A stretch of 64,000 bases of DNA, taken from NCBI GenBank assembly GCA_023819145.1, contig JAMWCW010000003.1:4321-68320 (forward strand). Reading direction: 5' to 3'. This document shows, in pieces, positions 32,827 to 39,638 of the stretch (its first letter is position 1; each line of letters begins with the position of its first letter). A program made the translations under genes and the position numbers. The notes under the pieces are model-generated. The model did no database searches. It worked only from the letters and a program-made list of their open reading frames with translations, and was not told where the DNA came from. The DNA is from Candidatus Omnitrophota bacterium. Its GTDB lineage: Bacteria; Omnitrophota; Gorgyraeia; DTHP01.

Positions 32827-33006
32827 ATGGCAAAGGTAGTAGTAAGACCAGGGCAGTCTATTGAAGGAGCAATCCGAGCTTTTCGCAAAAAATGTCAAGA
32901 GGAGAGGATTATTCAAAACTATAAAAGAGCTTCACGTTATGAAAAACCTTCTGCTGCACGGCGCATAAAACAGAAAGAAAGTCGTATGCGCGGTAGGGGG
33001 AGGTAG
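32827..33006 (+). CDS. rpsU: 30S ribosomal protein S21
   Basis: MAKVVVRPGQSIEGAIRAFRKKC...; GAGGTG RBS; ORF track start 32818. Confidence 0.85.
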   Translation: MAKVVVRPGQSIEGAIRAFRKKCQEERIIQNYKRASRYEKPSAARRIKQKESRMRGRGR

Positions 33007-33068
33007 CTTTATAAAGATAGGCTTGACAACTTTGGAATTTTTGCTAAAATTTTAAAACCAAAAGACAA

Positions 33069-33108
33069 AGGCGTCTCTGTAGCAAAAGAAGACGCCTTTT
33101 TGTTTTTT
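33069..33108 (+). terminator. intrinsic terminator downstream of rpsU
   Basis: AGGCGTCT ... AGACGCCT stem followed by TTTTTGTTTTTT. Confidence 0.7.
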
Positions 33109-33124
33109 ATTGGGGAATAGTTAG

Positions 33125-33967
33125 ATGGTAGAGATAATTTGCAAGAAGATAATTGCTTATAGTTTAGGAACACGTATCGTCCAACTGGAGTTAAAGTCTC
33201 CTCTAATTGCAAAAAAAACTCTCCCGGGGCAATTTGTAGTGTTAATGGTTTCCGAGAAAGGAGAGCGCATTCCTCTGACAGTAGTAGATAAAGATGAAGA
33301 AAGAGGGACAATTACCTTAATTTTCCAAGAAGCAGGGTTTACCACACGGTCTTTAGGAAGTTTGAAAGAAGGGGATTTTTTATATGCTTTGGTAGGACCA
33401 TTAGGAAATTATACAGAGATAAAGAATTATGGAAAAGTAGCTTTGGTTGGAGGAGGGGTGGGAATTGCGGAAATTTATCCGGTAGCCAAGGCTTTGAGAA
33501 AGGAAAACAATCATCTTATTACCATATTAGGTGCAAGAACCAAAGATTTATTGATTTTAGAAAAAGAACTAAAACAAGTATCTCAGGAATTGTATGTTAC
33601 TACCGATGATGGTTCTTATGGTAGAAAAGGATTTGTTACCGATGTTTTGCAAGAATTATTAACTATACACTATGCGCTGAATGCTATAGAATTAATCTAT
33701 GCGGTCGGTCCTGTTCCTATGATGAAAGGGGTTTCTCAAATTGCTAAAGATAGGGGAATAAAAGCCATTGTTTCTTTGAATGCTTTAATGGTCGATGCTA
33801 CAGGAATGTGCGGATGCTGTAGAGTAACCGTTGATGGAAAGACAAAATTTAGTTGCATTGATGGGCCAGAGTTTGAAGCCCAAAGTATAGATTGGGAGGA
33901 ATTAGGGAAAAGAACAAAGATGTATCAGGATAAAGAAACTCATATTTGCAAACTATACAACCGATGA
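33125..33967 (+). CDS. NfnA/SudB-like FAD/NAD-binding electron-transfer subunit (PyrK family) with [2Fe-2S] site
   Basis: 280 aa; ferredoxin-NADP reductase-like fold and C-terminal CGCC..C cluster motif; paired with GltD-like subunit. Confidence 0.7.
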   Translation: MVEIICKKIIAYSLGTRIVQLELKSPLIAKKTLPGQFVVLMVSEKGERIPLTVVDKDEERGTITLIFQEAGFTTRSLGSLKEGDFLYALVGPLGNYTEIKNYGKVALVGGGVGIAEIYPVAKALRKENNHLITILGARTKDLLILEKELKQVSQELYVTTDDGSYGRKGFVTDVLQELLTIHYALNAIELIYAVGPVPMMKGVSQIAKDRGIKAIVSLNALMVDATGMCGCCRVTVDGKTKFSCIDGPEFEAQSIDWEELGKRTKMYQDKETHICKLYNR

Positions 33968-35412
33968 GAAAAGAGCCAGTTAAAGTAAAAGAAATTAATA
34001 TTGAGGAAAGAACCAAAAGTTTTAAAGAGGTGGTTTTGGGTTATACTGAAGAAGAGGCAATTCTTGAAGCAAAAAGGTGTTTACAGTGCAAAAATCCTAC
34101 CTGTATCCTGGGGTGTCCTGTAGGAATAGATATAAAGAAATTTATTAATCAGATTGCCCAAAAAGATTACGAAGGTGCATATTGTACAATTAGAGAAAAA
34201 AATAATTTTCCCTCTATCTGTGGAAGGGTTTGCCCTGCAGAATATCAGTGTAGAAAAGCTTGTGTTTTGACTAAACGAGGTTCTATTTTTGCCTCTTTTG
34301 AAGCGATAAATATTCATTTCTTGGAGAGATTTGTGGGAGATTGGGGAATGATAAATATAAATTCTAAATCCGAAGCTCTAAATCCGAAGGTAAAGGGAAT
34401 AAAGAATTTAAACTTGAAATTTAGAGATAAAAGAGTGGCAGTTGTGGGTTCCGGGCCTGCAGGGCTATGTTGTGCGGGAGAGCTTGCGCGTCGTGGAATT
34501 GCAGTAGATATCTATGAAAGTTTACACAAACCAGGAGGTGTTTTGCGTTACGGAATACCTAATTTTCGTTTACCTCAAGAGATTTTAGATAGCGAGATAA
34601 ATTACCTGAGAGAGTTAGGAGTAGAAATAATGACTAATTTTGTCATTGGGAAATTAAAAACCGTAGATGAACTTTTTAAAGAGGGTTATTCCGCTATTTT
34701 TTTAGGTTTGGGTGCAGGAATCCCTACTTTTTTAGGAATTAAAGGAGAAAATCTCTGCAACATCTACTCGGCAAATGAGTTTTTAACCCGCGTTAACCTT
34801 ATGTTTGCTTACAAATTTCCCGATTATCATACGCCTCTAAATATAGGAGAGAGAATTATAGTAATTGGTGGAGGAAATACGGCAATGGATGCGGCAAGGT
34901 CTGCTTTAAGACTTCAGGTAATGAATAGAATTAAACCCGATGTTACGATACTTTATCGACGTACAGAGAGTGAGATGCCTGCAAGGCGTTTAGAGATTGC
35001 TCATGCTCAAGAAGAGGGAGTTAAATTTAAATTTTTAGTCCAGCCGCAGGAATTTGTTTCTGATAAACAAGGGTTTCTTAAAGGGCTTGTTTGTTTAGAG
35101 TGCAAGTTAGGAGAACCTGATGATTCTGGAAGACCAAAATCTATTCCTGTTCCAGGAAGTGATTTTCTTTTGGAAACGGATTTAGTAATCGTGGCTGTGG
35201 GCTTAAGGGCAAATCAGTTGCTTACTAGGGTTACTCCTGAGCTTAAGGTTGATAAGTATGGCGATATCATTGTTAATCCGGAGACGATGGAAACTTCGTT
35301 AAAGAATGTTTTTGCTGGTGGAGATATTGTAGGCGGAGAAGGGACAGTAATTGAAGCAATGGGTATGGCAAAGAAGGCAAGCGCTTCTATAATTAATCTC
35401 CTTTTCCCCTAA
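33964..35412 (+). CDS. NfnB/SudA-like subunit (glutamate synthase small-subunit family; 2x[4Fe-4S], FAD, NADPH)
   Basis: ATG at 33964 (ATGA overlap with upstream gene); Cys clusters CLQCKNPTC..C and CGRVCPAEYQC; Rossmann VAVVGSGPAGL. Confidence 0.7.
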   Translation: MRKEPVKVKEINIEERTKSFKEVVLGYTEEEAILEAKRCLQCKNPTCILGCPVGIDIKKFINQIAQKDYEGAYCTIREKNNFPSICGRVCPAEYQCRKACVLTKRGSIFASFEAINIHFLERFVGDWGMININSKSEALNPKVKGIKNLNLKFRDKRVAVVGSGPAGLCCAGELARRGIAVDIYESLHKPGGVLRYGIPNFRLPQEILDSEINYLRELGVEIMTNFVIGKLKTVDELFKEGYSAIFLGLGAGIPTFLGIKGENLCNIYSANEFLTRVNLMFAYKFPDYHTPLNIGERIIVIGGGNTAMDAARSALRLQVMNRIKPDVTILYRRTESEMPARRLEIAHAQEEGVKFKFLVQPQEFVSDKQGFLKGLVCLECKLGEPDDSGRPKSIPVPGSDFLLETDLVIVAVGLRANQLLTRVTPELKVDKYGDIIVNPETMETSLKNVFAGGDIVGGEGTVIEAMGMAKKASASIINLLFP

Positions 35413-35429
35413 TTTTTTCCAGGATTGAT

Positions 35430-35457
35430 TTGACAGAACTGAAATTTAGGATATAAT
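35430..35457 (+). promoter_or_regulatory. sigma70-like promoter upstream of gdhA
   Basis: TTGACA (35430-35435), 16-nt spacer, TATAAT (35452-35457). Confidence 0.5.
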
Positions 35458-35494
35458 AGAGAATCTAATAAAAAACAAAATAAGGAGGGATAAG

Positions 35495-36832
35495 ATGTCT
35501 AAGTATGTAGAAGATTTTATGGCAAAGGTAATCAATAATAATCCTCAGGAACCGGAATTTCATCAGGCGGTAAGAGAAGTAGTGGAATCAGTGATAGATT
35601 ACATAGACAAAAATCCTAAATACAAAGAATACAAAATCTTGGAAAGAATGGTCGAAGCAGAGCGAATAATTATTTTCCGTGTACCTTGGTTGGATGATAA
35701 GGGAGAAATTCAAGTAAATCGTGGATACCGTGTAGAGATGAATAGTGCAATTGGTCCTTATAAAGGAGGGATACGTTTTCATCCCACAGTTAATTTAAGT
35801 ATTCTTAAATTTCTGGCCTTTGAACAGGTCTTCAAAAATGCCCTGACTACTCTTCCCATGGGAGGTGGCAAGGGGGGTTCTGATTTTGACCCCAAAGGAA
35901 AGTCTGACAATGAAGTGATGAAGTTTTGTCAAAGTTTTATGAACGAGTTGTTCAGACACATCGGTCCTGATACCGATGTTCCTGCAGGTGATATCGGCGT
36001 AGGTTTGCGTGAAATTGGCTATATGTTTGGGCAGTATAAAAAACTGCGTAATGAGTTTACAGGGGTTTTTACCGGTAAAGGTCTTAAATGGGGAGGGAGT
36101 TTAATTAGACCCGAAGCAACAGGATACGGTTGTGTATATTTTGCCCAGGAGATGTTGAAAACACGTAAGGAAGCATTAAAGGGTAAGGTTTGCGCTATTT
36201 CGGGTTCAGGCAATGTTGCGCAGTATACTGCAGAAAAACTTATCCAGTTAGGAGCCAAAGTAGTAACCATGTCGGATTCCAATGGATTTATTTATGATGA
36301 GAAAGGGATTGATAAGAAAAAATTAGATTTTATTTTTGAACTTAAGAATATAAAACGTGGAAGAATCAAAGAATATGCGCAGAAATTTAAATGCAAATAT
36401 TTCGAAAATCAAAAACCTTGGGGGATAAAATGTGATATTGCCTTTCCCTCTGCTACGCAGAACGAAATAAGCGGAGAAGAGGCAAAAACTTTGGTTAAGA
36501 ATGGTTGCTTCTTAGTAGCCGAGGGAGCAAATATGCCCACAACACCCCAAGGCATTGATGTTTTTCAAAAGGCAAAAATTCTATACGCTCCGGGTAAAGC
36601 GGCTAATGCGGGAGGAGTAGCTACCTCGGGATTAGAAATGACGCAGAATAGTATAAGACTTTCTTGGACACGCGAAGAGGTTGATAAAAAACTTCAGGAA
36701 ATAATGATTGCTATCCATGAACAGTGTGTGAAATACGGAAAAGAAGGTAACTACATCAACTATGTAAAGGGTGCTAATATTGCTGGTTTTGTAAAAGTAG
36801 CAGATGCGATGATAGAGCAGGGGTTGGTGTAG
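35495..36832 (+). CDS. gdhA: NADP-specific glutamate dehydrogenase
   Basis: 445 aa; GGGKGG active-site region (PMGGGKGGSDFDPKGKS) and Rossmann GSGNVAQY. Confidence 0.9.
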   Translation: MSKYVEDFMAKVINNNPQEPEFHQAVREVVESVIDYIDKNPKYKEYKILERMVEAERIIIFRVPWLDDKGEIQVNRGYRVEMNSAIGPYKGGIRFHPTVNLSILKFLAFEQVFKNALTTLPMGGGKGGSDFDPKGKSDNEVMKFCQSFMNELFRHIGPDTDVPAGDIGVGLREIGYMFGQYKKLRNEFTGVFTGKGLKWGGSLIRPEATGYGCVYFAQEMLKTRKEALKGKVCAISGSGNVAQYTAEKLIQLGAKVVTMSDSNGFIYDEKGIDKKKLDFIFELKNIKRGRIKEYAQKFKCKYFENQKPWGIKCDIAFPSATQNEISGEEAKTLVKNGCFLVAEGANMPTTPQGIDVFQKAKILYAPGKAANAGGVATSGLEMTQNSIRLSWTREEVDKKLQEIMIAIHEQCVKYGKEGNYINYVKGANIAGFVKVADAMIEQGLV

Positions 36833-36833
36833 C

Positions 36834-37313
36834 TTACTCTACAATTTCTCCGATGTAGCTGAATTGCCAGCATTCGATAGCAATCGCCCGTAAGTGCTCT
36901 ACGGTTCCGGGTTGATAGGTTACTGCATAGTCTATCGCTACTTCCTCTTTAACCTCTCCTCCCAGCGTAGAGTAGGGTTTTTCTAAGATTTCTTTTAGTT
37001 TCGGGTCAGTGACATTGATTACCAGTTTACCTCCTCTTAACTCCGCGGTTCCTAAAAACTCACCCTTGGTTGCTTTTTCGGGGTCAAGAGCATAAAAATT
37101 TACTCGCATTTCTACTTTCTCTTCTGGTTTTGTAGGTTCTGAAGAAGTGCTGGGTGAAAGAATAGGAGTAGGTTCTTCACGCGTATTTTGGATTACGGGA
37201 ATTTCTCTCTCAAGGGAAATATATTTTTTTTCCTTTTTGGGCAACCTTAGCACAAAAATAATAGCGCTGATAAGCAAGATGATTAAGATAAAATTTAACT
37301 TCTTCATTATCAT
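36834..37313 (-). CDS. hypothetical membrane-anchored protein
   Basis: Minus-strand ORF 36834..37346; ATG at 37313 preferred; N-terminal TM helix then Pro/Ser/Thr-rich linker; no family recognised. Confidence 0.45.
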   Translation of the reverse strand: MIMKKLNFILIILLISAIIFVLRLPKKEKKYISLEREIPVIQNTREEPTPILSPSTSSEPTKPEEKVEMRVNFYALDPEKATKGEFLGTAELRGGKLVINVTDPKLKEILEKPYSTLGGEVKEEVAIDYAVTYQPGTVEHLRAIAIECWQFSYIGEIVE

Positions 37314-37396
37314 TTTTAGTCTAAATCTTCCTTTACTGTTTGTCAAGATAAATCAAACTTGCAGAAAAAGAGTTGTTTTGTTAAGATAATTCTAAA

Positions 37397-38014
37397 ATGG
37401 TTGCGATTATCAATTATAGAATGGGCAATTTGAGAAGCGTAGCTAAAGCTTTTGAAAAAGTAGGCGCAGGAGTGTTAGTTACTTCTAAAATTAAAGATTT
37501 AAAAGAAGCAAAAGCGATAGTCTTACCAGGAGTAGGAGCTTTTGGGCAGGGAATGAAGCATCTTAAAGAATTGGGAATTATCTCAGTTCTAAAGGATGAG
37601 ATAAATAAAAGGAAACCTTTTTTGGGAATCTGTTTAGGAATGCAACTTTTACTTAGTTATAGCGAGGAACATGGGAAACACAAGGGTCTAGATATCATCA
37701 AGGGATTTGTAAAACGTTTCCCAGAAAATTTTAAAATTCCCCATATGGGATGGAATCAAGTAAAAATCCGAAATCCGAAATCCGAAATCCGAAACAAGAT
37801 TTTAAAAGGAATCCCAGATGGTTCTTATTTTTATTTTGTTCATTCCTATTATGTGGTGCCTGAGGATAAGAAGGTAATCGTAGCGACCACAGACTATGGG
37901 ATAGGATTTCCTTCAGTAATACAAAAAGAGAATATTTGGGGAGTGCAATTTCATCCGGAAAAGAGTCAAGAATGGGGGTTAAAGATAATTAAAAATTTTG
38001 TTAATTTTGTTTAA
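37397..38014 (+). CDS. hisH: imidazole glycerol phosphate synthase, glutamine amidotransferase subunit
   Basis: 205 aa; GICLGMQLL catalytic Cys, HMGWNQV, YFYFVHSY; contains in-frame heptamer repeat tract. Confidence 0.9.
   Translation: MVAIINYRMGNLRSVAKAFEKVGAGVLVTSKIKDLKEAKAIVLPGVGAFGQGMKHLKELGIISVLKDEINKRKPFLGICLGMQLLLSYSEEHGKHKGLDIIKGFVKRFPENFKIPHMGWNQVKIRNPKSEIRNKILKGIPDGSYFYFVHSYYVVPEDKKVIVATTDYGIGFPSVIQKENIWGVQFHPEKSQEWGLKIIKNFVNFV
37764..37794 (+). repeat. tandem heptanucleotide repeat (ATCCGAA x4) inside hisH
   Basis: aaatccgaaatccgaaatccgaaatccgaaac read directly; encodes KIRNPKSEIRNK. Confidence 0.9.
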
Positions 38015-38117
38015 TTAGTTAATTTCGTTTAATCGTTATGTTCGTTACTCTCGTGAGGGATAATCTATTTAGTTAAACGAACAAAACGAGCCACGCGTAC
38101 AAAAGAAAGGACCGGTT

Positions 38118-38942
38118 ATGTTAGCAAGAAGAATTATTCCCTGTCTGGATGTTAAAGATGGTCGCGTAGTAAAAGGGATAAATTTTGTTAATTTACGCGA
38201 TGCCGGAGACCCTGTGGAGCAGGCAAAGATTTACGATAAAGAAGGAGCGGATGAGTTGGTTTTTTTGGACATTACTGCCAGTTTTGAAAAACGCTCTCCC
38301 ATCATTGAGGTGATAAAGAAAACTGCGGAGGCGATTTTTATTCCTCTTGCAGTGGGAGGAGGAATAAGAAATTTGGAGGACATTCGCCTCTTGCTTTCTT
38401 CAGGAGCAGATAAGGTTTCTGTAAATACTTTTGCAGTAAAAAACCCCAAGTTGGTTAAAGAAGCAGCGAAGGAATTTGGTAGTCAGTGTATTGTGGTAGC
38501 GATAGATGCTAAGAGAAAAATGAAATCCTCACCCTTGCGAGATAAGGCGTGCCCAACAAAGTTAGGCGGTGAATCCCGAAATCCAAAATTAAAGTGGGAA
38601 GTGTATATTCATGGAGGCAGAACCCCTACTGGTCTTGATGTTATAGAGTGGGCAAAGCGTGTTTATGATTTAGGAGCAGGAGAAATTCTCTTAACCAGTA
38701 TGGATAGGGATGGGACAAAATTAGGATATGACTTAGAATTGACCAGGAAAGTTGTTGAAGCGGTTAGAATTCCCGTGATTGCTTCTGGTGGAGCAGGGAA
38801 CTTAAAGCATCTTTTTGAGGCGTTTAAATTCGCTTTTGTAGATGCGGTTTTAGCTGCTTCCATATTCCATTACGGAGAATATTCCATTTCCCAAGCAAAA
38901 GATTATTTAAAGAAAAGAGGTATTCCCATAAGAGGAAATTAA
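38118..38942 (+). CDS. hisF: imidazole glycerol phosphate synthase, cyclase subunit
   Basis: 274 aa; (beta/alpha)8 HisF motifs ([32 protein letters not shown]); about 20-aa insertion after AIDAKR. Confidence 0.9.
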
Positions 38943-38945
38943 GAG

Positions 38946-39638
38946 ATGAAAGAAAGAATTTTAATCATCGAAGATGACAAAAATATTTCTAAACTTATTA
39001 AATATAATTTAGAGAAAGAAGGATTTAATTGTTTTACTGCTTTAAAGGCAGAAGAGGCTTTAGAGACCCTGAAGAGATTTGCTATAGATTTAATCATTCT
39101 CGACATTATGCTTCCGGATATGGACGGATTTGAGTTGTGTCGTTTGATAAAGGAAGAGAAAAAATTAAAAAGTATTCCTGTTATTATGCTTACCGCTAAG
39201 GGCGAAGAAGTTGATAAAGTGGTGGGATTTCAGTTGGGAGCAGACGACTACATGGTTAAACCTTTTAGTCCGCGGGAGTTAATTATGAGGATAAAAGCGG
39301 TGTTACGCCGGGGTAAAAAAGAAGAGGATAAAAAAGAAATTCTTCAGAGTGGAAATTTATTAGTGGATATTCCTCGGCACAAAGTTTTTATAAATGATAG
39401 AGAAGTTGAGCTTACTGCTTTAGAATTTAAACTCTTAGCTACACTTATGGAAAGGCGCGGTAGGGTCCAATCAAGAGAACTCCTTCTTTCTGATGTCTGG
39501 GGTATTTATACCCAAGTAAATACACGCACCGTAGATACACACATAAAACGTTTACGTCAGAAATTAGGAAAACTCGGGAAATTAATTGAAACAGTAATTG
39601 GACTTGGTTATCGGTTTAAGGAAGAAGATGAGAATTAA
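38946..39638 (+). CDS. OmpR-family response regulator, likely PhoB-like
   Basis: 230 aa; receiver domain (LILDIMLPDMDG) and winged-helix output; adjacent to kinase and pst operon. Confidence 0.85.
   Translation: MKERILIIEDDKNISKLIKYNLEKEGFNCFTALKAEEALETLKRFAIDLIILDIMLPDMDGFELCRLIKEEKKLKSIPVIMLTAKGEEVDKVVGFQLGADDYMVKPFSPRELIMRIKAVLRRGKKEEDKKEILQSGNLLVDIPRHKVFINDREVELTALEFKLLATLMERRGRVQSRELLLSDVWGIYTQVNTRTVDTHIKRLRQKLGKLGKLIETVIGLGYRFKEEDEN

Follow-up and report, generated by a model that had tools for sequence, protein, structure and literature searches.

Short features related to the heptanucleotide AAATCCG reside in hisH, nfnB and hisF of a Candidatus Omnitrophota bacterium, and are probably differently aged copies of one family of tandem-repeat arrays that has AAATCCG as its unit. 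The DNA analysed (the window) measures 64,000 nt, and corresponds to positions 4,321-68,320 of the forward strand of contig JAMWCW010000003.1 (assembly GCA_023819145.1). The finding holds for hisH and nfnB, and for hisF it is plausible; all three genes carry the unit on the sense strand. The arrays are DNA-level repeats of the class of short tandemly repeated repetitive sequences (STRRs), or long simple sequence repeats (SSRs), and not selected peptide motifs. They lie in frame at tolerant sites, i.e. a surface loop of HisH, the interdomain linker of NfnB and the loop following the AIDAK strand of HisF. An earlier note, made from the letters of the window, had drawn attention to these three sequences, and all were found at the positions that it gave.

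The hisH array, (AAATCCG)x4.4, spans positions 37764..37794 of the forward strand. It was called by Tandem Repeats Finder (TRF) with period 7 and 100% matches, and is the sole clear period-7 array of the window. Having 4.4 perfect copies, it qualifies as a head-to-tail array of a 7-nt unit present in at least three copies. The 31 nt are translated as K-I-R-N-P-K-S-E-I-R-N, in the loop located after PHMGWNQV. The loop measures, from PHMGWN on, 23 aa in the window and in many Omnitrophota, and 17-18 aa in microorganisms such as Thermodesulfovibrio and Nitrospirae; the window protein is about 5 aa longer than relatives outside the Omnitrophota. AAATCCG is free of stop codons in all six frames of the two strands, and the array region is in frame in all the HisH relatives examined.

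In nfnB, the DNA encoding the linker between the two domains of the protein (Fer4_20 and Rossmann; 34345..34434, forward strand) is 7-nt periodic throughout, according to a scan of identity at increasing lags. Identity over the 90 nt is 53% at lag 7 (p < 0.0002), 48% at lag 6, and 17-37% at most other lags. The linker measures 31 aa, 10 more than the 21 aa found in 94 of 110 homologues, and its long version is shared only with P0241, a protein 97% identical. A 14-nt, two-unit tandem duplication (TCTAAATCCGAAGC x1.9; 34363..34389, forward strand) lies inside this stretch, includes two copies of AAATCCGAA, and is read as S-K-S-E-A-L-N-P-K over its 27 nt. The earlier note had described the duplication as a 13-nt direct repeat present twice; TRF recovers it at a 14-nt spacing, with 100% matches. 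The period-14 duplication, set in 90 nt periodic at lag 7, qualifies nfnB as a heptamer array. In the close relative GCA_023818815.1 (about 95% identical in DNA; locus L209) the duplication carries one substitution, and its length is unchanged.

The sequence AAATCCGAA occurs 6 times in the window, against 1.24 expected, at two loci only, and none of 100 shuffles reached 6. With up to 4 mismatches to (AAATCCG)3, 2 clusters are found in 64 kb, those of hisH and nfnB, where 0.18 would be expected. The link between hisH and nfnB therefore exceeds chance. The likeness to the hisH heptamer, which the earlier note had extended to both other genes, thus holds for nfnB. The resemblance of hisF is not significant alone, because at its mismatch level (up to 5) 5 clusters were found in 64 kb against 1.2 expected.

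The hisF insert measures 63 nt (21 aa), follows AIDAKR directly and in frame (38517..38579, forward strand), and is absent from the short-loop relatives P0003-P0009 and P0057. The segment from AIDAK to WEVY measures 27 aa in the window; in 52 of 114 homologues it has 5-7 aa. At this site the sequence is K-NPKGR-W or K-NQKLG-W in the closest relatives with a short loop; because they keep NPKGR or NQKLG, the insert is set at 21 aa and NPKLK is regarded as ancestral. An insertion of about 20 aa after AIDAKR had been anticipated, and stands. The motif described with it extends too far, as its last 15 nt (AAT CCA AAA TTA AAG, encoding NPKLK) belong to the ancestral loop. What resembles the hisH array are two degenerate units, GAATCCC GAAATCC, located at the 3' edge of the insert and running into the ancestral NPK codons (38571..38584, forward strand). 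They feature 5 mismatches in 21 positions relative to (AAATCCG)3; rotating the hisH unit gives exactly GAAATCC. Having two degenerate units only, hisF does not contain a head-to-tail array of three or more copies. A 12-mer, AAATCCTCACCC, common to the hisF insert and to array flanks in loci L117 and L135, was inseparable from chance and was dropped. Alignment of homologues identified insertions at all three sites (HisF +21 aa, NfnB +10 aa, HisH about +5 aa), as had been suspected, rather than conserved loops.

The hisF insert evolves rapidly. Relative to the corresponding locus of GCA_023818815.1 (L001), 16 of its 63 nt differ, against 27 of 415 in the flanks (25% vs 6.5%, about 4 times faster; p = 2e-5), and its length is the same. 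Residues 134-159 of HisF are not aligned by HMMER to solved HisF structures. In an AlphaFold2 model of the protein (mean predicted local distance difference test score, pLDDT, of 85) the same residues form a coil between strands 125-133 and 160-164, with pLDDT < 50 at positions 137-155, and the insert is modelled as disordered.

The earlier note had considered a local hot-spot, but heptanucleotide periodicity is not a peculiarity of this 4-kb stretch; the window features are a local case of a widespread, little-studied class of bacterial heptanucleotide repeats that crosses phyla. A set of 80 loci selected by similarity to HisH (1.2 Mb, mostly from other phyla, at 45-60% identity) served as unselected control. 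The lag scan detected 1 array of period 7 and none of other periods in the window; loci L082 and L084 likewise feature period 7, and each contains one stray array (period 10 and 9, respectively). In the control set there were 22 arrays of period 7, 11 of period 14, and 0-1 for each of periods 4-6, 8-13 and 15. In 80 loci containing AAATCCG arrays, 132 arrays have period 7, 43 period 14, and at most 3 any other. Period 7 is almost the sole tandem period in about 1.7 Mb of related and unrelated loci. It is visible in the proteins too: the insert peptides of homologues reach an identity of 17.8% (HisF) and 15.1% (HisH loops) at lag 7, and of 4-10% at other lags. Peptides are periodic by 7 aa because a 7-nt repeat is read through all three frames.

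Sites corresponding to those of the window house arrays made by other units in other lineages. HisH and HisF sites with such arrays were found in Omnitrophota, Methylomirabilota, Ignavibacteria and in a contig labelled Planctomycetia, and units at the HisH, HisF and NfnB sites include AAATCCG, AAATTCA, AAAATCA, CTAACCG, CCCTCAG and AAGTTCA. The HisH loop contains (CTAACCG/CAAACCG)x2 in L082, (AAATTCA)3.5 in L087, (AAAATCA) repeated about four times in L219, (AAGTTCA)n in L046, an Ignavibacteria contig, and (AGAAGTC)n in L008. In L045 (Methylomirabilota) and L047 (Nitrospirota) the array resides in the preceding HisH loop instead. The AIDAKR site of HisF is occupied in L082, L084, L045 and L046, and the insert reaches 86 aa in the latter. 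The NfnB linker of L086 features (AAATTCA)x4.5. The inserts in the HisF genes of L082 and L084 are made by two arrays in inverted orientation, and fold stably (-30.3 and -28.3 kcal/mol; z = -3.81 and -3.98; 0 of 200 shuffles equally stable). The small in-frame insertion element proposed in the earlier note, taken as a discrete element of fixed sequence, is not supported: what is shared across lineages is the 7-nt period, and units differ at the same sites. Its other proposal, a slippage-prone repeat as source of the inserts, is supported. An apparent HisF length polymorphism between L082 and L083 was rejected, as only the gene-start calls differ.

Units tend to be shared by neighbouring genes. 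For three close genomes, the unit of hisH and the first unit in the loop of the neighbouring HisF go together: GAAATCC and GAAATCC in the window, GAAATTC and AAAATTC in GCA_023819455.1, AAAAATC and AAAAATC in GCA_023818945.1 (HisF loop first in each pair). Units are shared by hisH and hisF also in L082 and L045, and are not in L084 and L046. Over seven genomes the sharing of 7-mers by hisH and hisF loops exceeds chance, as the earlier note had implied for neighbouring genes of one genome, only 10 of 5040 permutations reaching the observed value, to which base composition and relatedness contribute. The nfnB unit coincides with the hisH unit in the window only, where the genes are 3 kb apart. 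This hints at a proximity-dependent exchange between arrays, in a tiny sample. A concerted change to AAATTCA in L086 nfnB and L087 hisH was considered and rejected, as the loci belong to different metagenome-assembled genomes (MAGs) and units differ within each genome.

Arrays of this type would expand, contract and become homogeneous by replication slippage or unequal exchange. Within genes, the versions that survive would be those keeping the frame and free of stops, read as a hydrophilic peptide in a permissive loop. Point mutations would later erode the arrays, the hisH one being possibly young and still perfect, that of nfnB intermediate, that of hisF old and largely decayed, and exchange or re-seeding between nearby arrays may account for the common unit. 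Whole-unit variation was observed between the close strains L084 and L085, which encode identical HisH and HisF proteins, and differ by exactly 49 nt, i.e. 7 units, in an intergenic (CTGTTTT)n array.

The heptamer AAATCCG recurs elsewhere. Arrays of (AAATCCG)3 or longer were found in at least 120 metagenome contigs, and by a rough estimate this number fits the general abundance of heptamer arrays over about 1170 unit classes. Eighty such contigs (L089-L168) were analysed. They span 32-70% GC, at least 13 contain a second AAATCCG array, in some cases kilobases away, and many arrays form inverted pairs. Perfect (AAATCCG)n stretches measure at most 34 nt in 90 arrays, with a mode of 32, and look limited to about five units; longer imperfect arrays exist. 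The peptide KSEIRNP is encoded in frame in seven proteins confirmed by Pfam (amidase, UppS, class-III aminotransferase, ATP-dependent DNA ligase, SecA, a CHAT domain protein and a protein kinase), and the reading of the opposite strand, RISDFGF, was found once, in a P-type ATPase. In four soil contigs (L099 at about 2529, L100 at about 1472 and 2825, L136 at about 719, L144 at about 2201) the array occupies the loop between the arms (GTAGCAGCCGAGGTAACGAGGCTCT ... AGAGCCTCCTCACGTCGGCTGCTAC) of a conserved inverted repeat, about 25 bp in size, which looks like a repetitive extragenic palindromic (REP) element or an element similar to miniature inverted-repeat transposable elements (MITEs) carrying the array. 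In the GC-rich contigs L092, L093, L110, L147, L150, L156 and L164, GGTGG or GGGTGG often precedes the base located before the array.

Several data weigh against the assignment of the window features to one array family. Outside the 4.2-kb stretch the window contains no other AAATCCG array, and at relaxed thresholds it shows no general excess of period 7. The hisF insert as a whole lacks 7-nt periodicity (p = 0.31), its motif matches at chance level, and its membership in the family is inferred from position. The nfnB insert measures 30 nt, a multiple of neither 7 nor 21, and therefore more than one event is needed to account for it. Changes of copy number by whole units were seen only in a related array, and for none of the arrays of the window. 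In two related genomes nfnB and hisH, located on different contigs, have different units, and therefore sharing at the genome-wide level is not general. Finally, slippage alone explains neither period 7 nor how one unit reached different loci.

Some of these data, i.e. the chance-level match and aperiodicity of hisF and the lack of a period-7 excess, along with the ancestral origin of the HisF NPK residues, would suit a different explanation: that the loops are ordinary, fast-evolving and compositionally biased, and that the shared motif is a coincidence in an AT-rich genome favouring Lys, Asn and Ile codons. We regard this as very unlikely overall, and for hisH and nfnB it is already refuted, as a perfect 31-nt array and a perfect 27-nt duplication share a 9-mer, and such clusters are in excess over expectation as reported above. 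A compositional bias is also difficult to reconcile with the restriction of tandem periodicity to period 7 over the loci scanned, with the occurrence of AAATCCG in contigs spanning a wide GC range, and with the concordance of hisH and hisF loop sequences within one genome.

It is extremely unlikely that the repeats are functional elements, either as a phase-variable switch in hisH, in which adding or losing a single unit shifts the frame, or as an array of heptamers in the mRNA regulating the his and nfn genes through protein binding or RNA structure. A perfect repeat inside an open reading frame (ORF) is reminiscent of the anatomy of contingency loci, regulators have been suggested to bind heptamer repeats lying upstream of start codons (PMC4679880), and the L082 and L084 hisF inserts form strong hairpins. 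Yet the genes are biosynthetic and housekeeping, the tract has 4.4 units only, every relative examined is in frame, a combination that sets hisH apart from phase-variable contingency loci, and the unit sequence is not conserved between lineages. The hisF, hisH and nfnB segments of the window feature no significant fold relative to shuffles (z = -0.23, +1.37 and -0.24, respectively), and no significant hairpin was found in the hisF insert. A search of Rfam with positions 33000-39500 returned two sub-threshold matches only, both outside the features. On the basis of fold scores and Rfam search, a reading of the window inserts as hairpins or structured RNAs was rejected.

Genes of the PF05635 family (S23p, 'four helix bundle protein', 23S rRNA intervening-sequence protein) typically have heptamer arrays on both sides, in most cases inverted relative to each other. 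Fourteen S23p loci were examined. S23p genes lie between inverted heptamer arrays in L149 (2872-3345), L113 (1289-2111) and L084, which contains two (2956-3361 and 3990-4548). In L084, an S23p gene is preceded by GACAGAC/GACAGAA repeats and followed by their reverse complement, and the array located after the first S23p gene shares its unit family with one arm of the insert found in hisF of the same contig. Eight plasmid loci (L210-L217, gene at about 2000), mostly from Nostoc and relatives, plus Riemerella, were picked by S23p similarity alone. Period-7 arrays flank the gene in 6 of the 8, and in 5 the complementarity of the upstream and downstream flanks exceeds that of all shuffles. One of these loci, L216 (plasmid pANA02 of Anabaena sp. 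90, about 1640-2477), contains about 270 nt of heptamer arrays, the S23p gene and an inverted array, and this cassette lies within a type I-D CRISPR-cas operon, with cas6 on one side and cas4 on the other. In L084 (2204-5383) and L085 (5099-8327) hisH and hisF are separated and preceded by two inserted S23p genes, and several toxin-antitoxin pairs (PemK/ParD, BrnT/CopG) follow downstream; the his genes are adjacent both in L082 and in the window. Two long HisF homologues, P0067 and P0068, were examined for an internal S23p gene, and are HisA-HisF fusions or merged gene calls. No S23p gene was found in the 64-kb window by jackhmmer searches with three S23p proteins, and therefore the association bears on the class of repeats, and not directly on the window finding.

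The arrays could accordingly be viewed as gene-less, MITE-like derivatives of S23p cassettes, inserted at their sites and not generated in place. This is rather unlikely in our opinion, and overlaps with the interpretation given above, as it concerns the seeding of arrays only. It would account for the inverted heptamer flanks of the S23p genes in L149, L113 and L084 and in the plasmids, for the recurrence of an S23p-array unit family in one arm of the L084 hisF insert, for the folding inverted pairs in L082 and L084 hisF, and for the gene-less inverted pairs common in metagenome contigs. A (GACAGAT)n repeat precedes the S23p ORF also in Coxiella burnetii (PMC4990558). On the other hand, no S23p gene is present in the window, where hisH and nfnB each contain one array rather than an inverted pair, and the hisF insert shows no significant fold. 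For most arrays of the fetched loci there is no S23p gene in the vicinity, neither a target-site duplication nor an enzyme for transposition was identified, and the S23p loci examined are only 14.

In a wider form, advanced tentatively and with low confidence, heptamer arrays may be the stem-forming ends of widespread small cassettes encoding PF05635 proteins (S23p, bAvd-like four-helix bundles), a module of 23S rRNA intervening sequences. Gene-less pairs and single arrays, including those in HisH, HisF, NfnB, GatA, SecA and DNA ligase, might be non-autonomous derivatives or remnants of such cassettes. If so, period 7, the occurrence of one unit at several loci and the limit of about five units (34 nt at most) would all be explained. 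The protein bAvd is a pentamer, and one may speculate, by analogy, that a length of about five units fits binding by a pentameric protein. The S23p association, if true, would provide a testable handle on how heptamer repeats arise and spread.

The over-representation of heptameric repeats in bacteria has been known since 2007, and cyanobacterial STRRs since 1990. To our knowledge, these repeats have no established mechanism or function, and have been treated as intergenic. Rickettsia palindromic elements are selfish or neutral DNA found in frame in housekeeping proteins, at surface-exposed, tolerant positions; they measure 100-150 bp and have a conserved family sequence. The repeats described here similarly reside in frame at tolerant positions, and the L082 and L084 hisF inserts also form hairpins. 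They differ in being 20-80 nt long and defined by a 7-nt period rather than by sequence conservation, and in the window no copy is palindromic, either of the Rickettsia type or MITE-like.

Heptameric repeats are in excess in bacteria, occur in inverted pairs and have been hypothesised to derive from polymerase slippage; over-represented heptameric long SSRs include GGGAATC in Xanthomonas and GGGGA(T/C)T in Nostoc (PMC4692102). As a class, the arrays described here resemble cyanobacterial STRRs and heptameric long SSRs in the 7-nt unit, the head-to-tail arrangement in a few to tens of copies, the dispersal of one or few units over many genomic loci, the frequent inverted pairs, and the variation in length and sequence between close relatives; in the window the unit is found at two clear loci and a marginal one within 4.2 kb, and wider dispersal, inverted pairs and whole-unit variation come from other contigs. 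STRRs and heptameric long SSRs have been described as mainly intergenic, a trait not shared by the hisH, nfnB and hisF features, which are all within coding sequences, in frame and translated, in catalytic domains or linkers of conserved enzymes; moreover, the host is an Omnitrophota and the unit is AAATCCG.

TAACTGA direct repeats have been described in Beggiatoaceae, Cyanobacteria and Bacteroidetes (MacGregor 2015, PMC4679880). These heptamers are similarly dispersed in the genome in sets of 2-6 copies; a few are inside ORFs, where the stop-free strand gives a 7-aa periodic peptide, LSVISYQ, and their possible mobility was raised by the author (PMC4679880). TAACTGA has stops in all forward frames, and is for this reason mostly located upstream of start codons or at ORF ends. 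In contrast, AAATCCG lacks stops on either strand, and occurs mid-domain in enzymes.

In the 23S intervening sequence of Coxiella burnetii, the (GACAGAT)n repeat varies in copy number among strains (PMC4990558). As in L084, with its GACAGAC/GACAGAA repeats, heptamers stand beside an S23p ORF, and in Coxiella they do so within a stem-forming element. The window differs in having neither an S23p gene nor an rRNA context, and the link to its arrays is indirect. Apart from this description, no paper connecting S23p and heptanucleotide repeats was found in the library searched, and nothing on Omnitrophota and heptanucleotide repeats beyond PMC4692102, PMC4679880 and PMC4990558.

What is added here is that identical loops of core enzymes are repeatedly occupied by in-frame arrays across several phyla, that loops of neighbouring genes in one genome share sequence, and that the translation of a single unit yields one peptide in many proteins unrelated to each other. 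Such inserts are a source of disordered loops in conserved proteins, and distort alignments, length-based orthology calls and structure predictions.

The window has a GC content of 38%, and the top matches of its proteins are to MAGs named Candidatus Omnitrophica or Omnitrophota. The gene order is nfnA (33125-33967), nfnB/gltD-like (33946-35412), gdhA (35495-36832), a small ORF on the minus strand, hisH (37397-38014) and hisF (38118-38942). On the forward strand (33946..35412), nfnB encodes an NfnB/GltD-like NADPH-dependent oxidoreductase (Pfam Fer4_20 at aa 22-135, Pyr_redox_2 at aa 163-474), homologues of which are annotated as 'NADPH-dependent glutamate synthase' in the source records. The mechanical ORF begins at a TTG and overlaps nfnA (33946-33967); judging from homologues, the real start is likelier the ATG at 33965 (MRKEPVKVKE...). 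hisH (37397..38014, forward strand) encodes the glutamine amidotransferase subunit of imidazole glycerol phosphate synthase (Pfam GATase, E = 5e-22), and the protein is 100% identical to P0121, HisH of an Omnitrophica MAG at NCBI. hisF (38118..38942, forward strand) encodes the cyclase subunit (Pfam His_biosynth, E = 4e-88), which matches solved HisF structures with E = 5e-108 and weaker.

A second, imperfect tandem repeat (37994-38033; period 9-10, AATTTTGTT-like, about 4 copies) spans the final hisH codons and the hisH-hisF spacer. Contig L001 of the ~95% relative begins inside hisF, the neighbour of hisH, so its assembly broke close to this repeat.

Other features were noted in the fetched loci. 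In L082 (13810-17436) and L083 (4210-7824) the gene for the large subunit of ribonucleotide reductase hosts an intein containing a LAGLIDADG domain, and the intein is absent from the orthologue (754 aa) in L087 and L219. Very long gene calls are found in L086 (11557-21434) and L085 (1-4948), such as iPGM (844 aa), PGK (1053 aa), FBPase_3 (1033 aa) and a 1648-aa product matching FBPase_glpX, aldolase and TIM; these long glycolytic proteins may be real fusions or merged calls.

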